Shown one piece after another: positions 46,278-47,612 of a DNA stretch of 64,000 nucleotides (position 1 is the first letter of the stretch; each line of letters opens with the position of its first letter). The stretch lies in the NCBI RefSeq assembly GCF_051903065.1, contig NZ_CP178438.1. One strand, written 5' to 3'. The stretch comes from Escherichia coli. Its GTDB lineage: Bacteria > Pseudomonadota > Gammaproteobacteria > Enterobacterales > Enterobacteriaceae. The translations under genes were made by a program, and so were the position numbers. The notes beneath the pieces are model-generated. The model made no database searches and was not told the DNA's origin. It worked only from the letters and a program-made list of their open reading frames with translations.

Positions 46278-46338
46278 CTTATTGCTCCTTATTATTGCTT
46301 TTTTTTTCTCGTCAAATTCAGTGCGACAGATAAGGAGT

Positions 46339-47395
46339 GGCTTTGTTGAATAAATCGAACTTTTGCTGAGTTGAAGGATCAGATCACGTATCTTCCCGAC
46401 AACGCAGACCGTTCCGTGGCAAAGCAAAAGTTCAAAATCACCAACTGGCCCACCTACAATAAAGCCCTCATCAACCGTGGCTCCATAACTTTCTGGCTGG
46501 ATGATGAAGCTATTCAGGCCTGGTATGAGTCAGCAACACCTTCTTCACGAGGCAGACCTCAGCGCTATTCTGACCTTGCCATCACGACTGTGCTGGTCAT
46601 TAAACGCGTATTCAGGCTGACCCTGCGCGCTGCGCAGGGCTTTATTGATTCCATTTTTTCTCTGATGAACGTTCCGCTACGCTGCCCGGATTACAGCTGT
46701 GTCAGCAGGCGGGCAAAGTCGGTTAATGTCAGTTTCAAAACGCCCACCCGGGGTGAAATCGCACACCTGGTAATTGATTCCACCGGGCTGAAGGTCTTCG
46801 GTGAAGGCGAGTGGAAAGTCAAAAAGCATGGCCAGGAACGCCGCCGTATCTGGCGTAAGCTGCATCTCGCCGTTGACAGTAAAACACATGAAATCATCTG
46901 CGCTGACCTGTCGCTGAACAACGTTACGGACTCAGAGGCCTTCCCCGGGTTAATCCGGCAAACCCACCGGAAAATCAGGTCAGCCGCCGCCGATGGCGCT
47001 TACGATACCCGGCTATGTCACGATGAACTGCGGCGTAAGAAAATCAGCGCGCTTATCCCTCCCCGAAAAGGTGCGGGTTACTGGCCCGGTGAATATGCAG
47101 ACCGTAACCGTGCAGTGGCTAATCAGCGAATGACCGGGAGTAATGCGCGGTGGAAATGGACAACAGATTACAACCGTCGCTCGATAGCGGAAACGGCGAT
47201 GTACCGGGTAAAACAGCTGTTCGGGGGTTCACTGACACTGCGTGACTACGATGGTCAGGTTGCAGAGGCTATGGCCCTGGTACGAGCGCTGAACAAAATG
47301 ACGAAAGCAGGTATGCCTGAAAGCGTGCGTATTGCCTGAAAACACAACCCGCTACGGGGGAGACTTACCCGAAATCTGATTTATTCAACAAAGCC
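46339..47395 (+). mobile_element. IS903-type insertion sequence (1057 bp, IS5 family) with perfect 18-bp terminal inverted repeats and a 9-bp target duplication ATAAGGAGT
   Basis: Terminal repeat GGCTTTGTTGAATAAATC at both ends (inverted); direct repeats at 46330-46338 and 47396-47404. Confidence 0.95.
46371..47339 (+). CDS. IS903 transposase (DDE)
   Basis: Protein ...[23 protein letters not shown]...ADGAYDTR... typical of IS903-group transposases; exact start codon uncertain. Confidence 0.9.
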
Positions 47396-47612
47396 ATAAG
47401 GAGTATACGGATGAAGCTTAATGAATTCTTAACGCGGGCGATGAAATAGTAAACGCCGCAGGGGGGCGGCGGTTGTCTCTGGATGGCAGAACATTTTCAG
47501 CTTACATCGACTGATAAATGCGCCTCATCCATGAATGATAGATGAGGCGGTTAACGTTTAAATGTTAATCTATATCGTCTGCCATACCCACTCTGTTTGG
47601 GTGATTATTGAA

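Follow-up and report, generated by a model that had tools for sequence, protein, structure and literature searches.

A recent, strain-specific IS903B insertion upstream of yjiK in Escherichia coli

The intergenic region upstream of yjiK in the window (the whole 64-kb stretch of Escherichia coli DNA that was analysed) is interrupted by a complete IS903B. The best explanation of the locus as a whole, in which we place high confidence, is a simple, very recent and strain-specific IS903B insertion in the promoter/leader of yjiK, with a predicted consequence for the expression of this gene. The event itself is an ordinary textbook simple insertion of a common known IS, and its site is new at the strain level only.

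The inserted element

The DDE transposase of IS903 (IS5 family) binds the 18-bp inverted repeats (IRs) and joins the ends of the element to a 9-bp staggered cut, and the repair of this cut gives a duplication. The parts of the inserted element are located as follows (window positions):

46330–46338, no strand: left copy of the target duplication ATAAGGAGT, of which the empty site of strain 23CRST031 has a single copy
46339–47395, plus strand: IS903B, 100% identical over 1057 bp to RefSeq copies annotated 'IS5-like element IS903B family transposase'
46339–46356, plus strand: IRL GGCTTTGTTGAATAAATC, the 18-bp IR at the yjiK-facing end
46416–47339, plus strand: transposase gene (tnp), 307 aa from GTG, transcribed away from yjiK
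47378–47395, minus strand: IRR, 18 bp, the perfect complement of IRL
47396–47404, no strand: right copy of the target duplication ATAAGGAGT

The element is a complete IS903B of 1057 bp (IS5 family, IS903 group), the two ends of which agree over 18 bp with 0 mismatches. The IR sequence is present exactly twice in the window even if 3 mismatches are allowed, and in a shuffle control at the same threshold (at most 3 mismatches) 0.13 matches were expected and two matches were reached in 0 of 100 shuffles. Past 18 bp the ends diverge, an extension of 34 nt being 79% complementary. The 9-bp duplication, which abuts both IRs, also has only two occurrences in the window, and the chance of a given 9-mer recurring at the duplication position is about 4^-9. 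The first-pass annotation of this DNA had described an IS903 element with perfect 18-bp IRs and an intact 9-bp duplication at 46330–47404; all of this is confirmed, the isoform being IS903B and the coordinates being those of the element plus both duplication copies. On the yjiK side the junction reads TTCAACAAAGCC followed directly by ACTCCTTATCTG, and the IS-flank junction of the insertion allele is GCGACAGATAAGGAGTGGCTTTGTTGAATAAATC.

The transposase gene is the single intact DDE transposase gene of the element. In RefSeq-style annotation it starts at TTG 46371, which gives 322 aa, and stops at 47339. Its product matches the Pfam families DDE_Tnp_1_5 (2.9e-40) and DDE_Tnp_1 (5.9e-33) and, over the full length, the NCBIfam model NF033579 for IS5 family transposases (357.6 bits, cutoff 140).

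Comparison of the element with RefSeq-annotated copies gives 100% identity (1057 bp) with IS903B from many chromosomes and plasmids of E. coli and also with one copy carried by a plasmid of the Citrobacter freundii complex, and copies of at least 95% identity are widespread on plasmids of Klebsiella, Enterobacter and Salmonella (Enterobacteriaceae). Because the copy on the H113 plasmid, annotated plainly as 'IS903 family', is only about 96% identical to the element, the isoform is on sequence identity IS903B rather than the IS903 prototype, and the name IS903 is right at the family level.

IS903 copies of 1057 bp have been tabulated (PMC9282650) and a 9-bp target duplication is listed for IS903 (PMC2577343). 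In its length, its perfect 18-bp IRs, its 9-bp duplication and its single DDE transposase the element is like IS903/IS903B, and it does not itself differ from IS903B, only the insertion site being new. Every testable defining feature of IS903/IS903B is present, and the one departure concerns the target preference, which is not obligatory. The preferred target, WTTYA-N9-TRAAW (PMC2577343), is a preference and no requirement, and the target used here, GACAG-N9-ATACG, agrees with it at 1 of the 10 specified positions.

Empty site and age of the insertion

An IS at the yjiK site was found in none (0) of the 5,426 complete E. coli genomes in RefSeq, nor does any of these genomes match 80% or more of window positions 45400–48400 in one place. 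The empty site, represented by a 375-bp query that consists of both flanks and one copy of the 9-mer, is contiguous in 634 genomes. The best matches to the flanks (99.9% identity) come from 23CRST031 and 23CRST027, which were obtained from human faeces in Ecuador. In 23CRST031 the empty site GTGCGACAGATAAGGAGTATACGG is exact over 200 bp on each side, and elsewhere in the window this strain shows one mismatch in about 63 kb. The form that the first-pass annotation had predicted for the empty site, GTGCGACAG-ATAAGGAGT-ATACGG, occurs verbatim in 23CRST031, and the same IS with different flanks, which would make the duplication coincidental, was looked for in relatives and not found.

IS903B content differs at three sites between the window and 23CRST031, one of the insertions being window-only and two relative-only. 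Three IS differences against one SNP in about 63 kb lend indirect support to active transposition of IS903B in this clone and make the yjiK insertion very recent; the earlier view of the insertion as recent is borne out by the empty site in the nearest relatives.

The genome of 23CRST031 has 20 IS903B places. Among these copies, one splits an mcrB-like gene and one has as its neighbours an HNH endonuclease gene and a sialate O-acetylesterase gene that is truncated; at these two positions (about 9726–9735 and 12954–12962) the window is uninterrupted, and its mcrB-like gene is therefore not split there. 23CRST031 also carries an IS1A between ytiC and yjiC (30122–30819 of its locus; about 33.5 kb in the window). 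The window is collinear with 23CRST031 across this region at 100% identity, and therefore the IS1 is common to both and older than the IS903B differences.

A further observation made in the same comparison concerns the invertible element fimS, which lies between fimE and fimA (window positions about 19069–19390, with TTGGGGCCA repeats) and has the opposite orientation to that in 23CRST031. The copy of 23CRST031 aligns with 15 gap-opens in its centre, and its sequence looks like the consensus of a mixed ON/OFF population.

The yjiK locus and its promoter region

The insertion is located between yjiK and an espX6-like gene, in the following surroundings (window positions):

45367 to 44189, minus strand: yjiJ, MFS transporter
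45435–46277, minus strand: yjiK, encoding a PF06977 'SdiA-regulated' domain protein of 280 aa (TTG start; Pfam 1.8e-91)
47612 to 46278, minus strand: intergenic region with the IS
47402–47432, minus strand: putative yjiK promoter, with -35 TTAAGA (47432–47427), a 19-nt spacer and -10 TATACT (47407–47402)
47454–47471, minus strand: GC hairpin, terminator-like, with TTTACTATTT after it; it comes after the espX6-like gene and bounds the yjiK promoter region on the upstream side
47613–49889, minus strand: espX6-like pentapeptide-repeat gene, the upstream neighbour (758 aa, 29–41% GC)

The TTG start of yjiK at 46277 gives the same start and the same length of 280 aa as the RefSeq CDS WP_021557495.1 in the near-identical 23CRST031, and it is preceded at a distance of 7 nt by the SD sequence AAGGAG (46290–46285). 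The IS ends 61 bp upstream of this start, where the distance had been given as about 60 bp. IRL and the 5' end of tnp adjoin yjiK, so that tnp and yjiK are divergent. Downstream, yjiJ follows yjiK after 67 bp. K-12 is without the espX6-like gene, and there yjiK comes 64 bp after ytiA. Both yjiK and the espX6-like gene belong to a low-GC stretch (29–46% GC). The espX6-like gene contains internal tandem peptide repeats, PATPxIPGTP and DSTDKQxN, and its annotated length varies between strains.

Mechanical ORF calling gives a frame at 45435–46427 whose length is 330 aa in the window and 280 aa in the empty-site sequence, which upholds the earlier remark that the yjiK frame is artificially long. 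The longer frame was also considered as an N-terminally extended or fusion protein and rejected, as it begins at a TTG within the IS, on the strand opposite to tnp, where a clear SD is absent, and the native protein has 280 aa.

Two stable hairpins are located after the stop codon of the espX6-like gene (RNA fold z = -5.6), the second of which, CGCCGC-CCCCCT-GCGGCG with a T-rich tail TTTACTATTT, scores as terminator-like. Owing to this hairpin on the espX6 side, yjiK should own a promoter in the approximately 110 bp before its start codon. In seven espX6-type sequences (the window with the IS removed and six strains, 92–98% identical over the 375-bp region) the stretch of about 110 bp from the hairpin to yjiK shows no variation other than in the length of an A-run, and two blocks, CGCGTTAAGRATTCATTAAG and CGTATACT, are conserved in comparison with the far more divergent upstream region of K-12.

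The best candidate in a relaxed hexamer scan is TTAAGA-19-TATACT, with 9 of 12 matches and a -10 that ends 58 nt before the start codon. Its 19-nt spacer is suboptimal, and it was missed by a stricter scanner working with spacers of 16–18 nt. TATACT overlaps 3 nt of the right duplication copy and, together with the TTAAG-N6-TTAAG block, is conserved between the K-12-type and the espX6-type upstream regions. This block is a direct repeat in an 11-bp register (47432–47417, minus strand) that covers the -35 region of the putative promoter, and its form suggests that it could be the binding site of some activator. Neither yjiK nor its coordinates occur in the Cappable-seq and ROSE text supplements.

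Other candidates in the region were considered. A genomic-SELEX 'constitutive promoter', CTGACC-19-TACAAT, has been assigned to the yjiK-yjiL spacer of K-12 (PMC3946193). It is uninformative here: in K-12 this sequence is found in or close to ytiA, at a greater distance upstream, and the segment around it did not align with the yjiK-adjoining region of the window. TTGACG (46314–46309, minus strand) was rejected as a proximal -35, as no acceptable -10 comes after it and the A-run in its would-be spacer varies from 6 to 9. Beside yjiK there remains a weak motif formed by the flank only, CTGAAT-19-AATAAT. The A-run in the yjiK leader (46299–46307, a T-run on the plus strand) has 9 nt in the window and 6–9 nt among E. 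coli strains; located between the point of insertion and the SD, it may be prone to slippage.

The opposite strand of the promoter region holds a 12-codon ORF, MKLNEFLTRAMK and stop (47411–47449, plus strand), with a consensus SD AAGGAG that is placed inside the duplicated 9-mer 7 nt before ATG. This ORF precedes the bidirectional hairpin at 47454–47471 and is invariant in espX6-type E. coli. The idea that it is a genuine small gene which the IS disturbs was rejected, as it is unconserved in K-12 and no promoter was found for it; the ORF is probably due to chance.

Predicted effect on yjiK expression

The IS splits the region of about 110 bp into 48 bp on the distal side, the 9-mer and 52 bp on the proximal side. 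The putative promoter is now 1066 bp removed from yjiK, and 52 native bp with one 9-mer copy remain before the start. An intact IS903B that hops into this short promoter/leader region would leave the only good promoter candidate of yjiK beyond the IS, just downstream of the terminator of the espX6 gene, with a predicted start at the very IS boundary, about 5–8 nt past TATACT and inside the 9-mer ACTCCTTAT. To reach yjiK, native transcripts would have to read through the 1057 bp of the IS, antisense to tnp and untranslated, and leaders that are long and untranslated are typical targets of Rho-dependent polarity. Expression of yjiK would be lowered or abolished, and perhaps that of yjiJ also, if the two genes are co-transcribed. 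It is plausible from this arrangement that yjiK has been uncoupled from its putative promoter, and the most probable outcome, on this prediction, is that yjiK is expressed less.

On its minus strand the IS has no strong predicted intrinsic terminator, only a weak 5-pair stem (46993–46980), and for this reason some yjiK expression could persist by read-through. This bears on the possibility that the insertion is neutral, in that yjiK is silent or negligibly expressed, or that read-through to it is sufficient, so that the IS merely marks the expansion of IS903B. Such neutrality has to be taken seriously, although we hold it to be a minority explanation. On the one hand, the clone has about 20 IS903B copies, the sites of which differ between near-identical strains; none of the 634 other genomes with the same intergenic configuration is interrupted (0/634), which gives no sign of recurrent or selected insertion; the target agrees with the preferred motif at so few positions; read-through would meet no strong terminator on the yjiK strand; and the low GC content of the stretch is in line with it, since a yjiK gene that may be natively poorly expressed in an AT-rich region would not be changed by the insertion. 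On the other hand, the upstream region of about 110 bp is invariant across diverse lineages, the A-run length aside, which suggests function, and splitting it should therefore matter. As regards its origin, IS903B is expanding in this clone (about 20 copies), and the insertion at yjiK most likely arose as just another of its many nearly random hops and not as an adaptive rewiring.

Insertions of ISs into promoter regions that affect the adjoining gene are represented in E. coli by IS5 at flhDC and bglGFB, and IS903B at or in mgrB of Klebsiella appears in the colistin-resistance literature. The yjiK insertion is like these cases in being located tens of bp upstream of the gene, between it and the presumptive promoter; it differs from them in that there is no recurrence across strains and no evident activating orientation or promoter. 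Activation of yjiK by the IS, of the kind seen with IS5 at bglGFB/flhDC, was considered as well: IRL might provide or complete an outward promoter, or the insertion might break up a repressive upstream structure, for example one bound by H-NS, with which the AT-rich upstream region would agree. We regard such activation as having a slim chance. It gains some support from elements of the IS903 group in Paracoccus, which have experimentally shown outward promoters (PMC3281130; cited in PMC9208149). However, the promoters of these elements of the same group are located in the 3' terminal part, whereas here it is the 5' end (IRL), divergent from yjiK, that faces the gene. Furthermore, no minus-strand promoter motif with at least 8 of 12 matches was detected from 46520 to the junction (about 180 bp of the IS) or spanning the junction, and the stricter scan also gave none. 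The proposal of the first-pass annotation that the IS might supply an outward promoter consequently finds no counterpart at IRL at this threshold, the reported promoters being in the part that faces away from yjiK, and activation of yjiK driven by the IS is judged from the motif scans to be unlikely.

The same annotation had called the native yjiK promoter SdiA-responsive. The SdiA box known from the ftsQ P2 literature is AAAAG-N8-GAAAA, and neither strand of the native upstream region (305 bp) contains a match within 2 mismatches. In the literature naming both yjiK and SdiA (one genome announcement apart), the connection is either the PF06977 name only or there is no link. The label thus goes back to the name of the Pfam family, and no motif resembling an SdiA box accompanies it.

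The idea that the duplication is coincidental, or that the IS is within a larger composite or rearranged structure, deserves practically no credence, because nothing was found in its support and it is refuted by the comparison with 23CRST031, in which the flanks are collinear on both sides and the empty site has exactly one 9-mer, the window itself holding the IS only once; the insertion is unrearranged, as had been stated before.

Meaning of the insertion

Beyond bookkeeping at the level of strains the insertion matters little; it is a record of IS903B transposition that appears to be continuing in a single clone of E. coli. Since three site differences were found against one SNP in 63 kb, it is usable as a fine-scale epidemiological marker. 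For annotation, the 330-aa ORF should be regarded as an artefact, and 'SdiA-regulated' as the name of a family and not as evidence for regulation. It would be very surprising if the insertion were adaptive in this human-gut clone, in the sense that yjiK (perhaps also yjiJ) has been silenced or activated and a surface or envelope trait changed; if that were so, the strain would be a natural regulatory mutant that could reveal the role of the uncharacterised beta-propeller protein YjiK. Under the preferred explanation, a simple and very recent insertion in the promoter/leader, the window holds a natural allele of the functionally uncharacterised gene yjiK in which the promoter has probably been disrupted.
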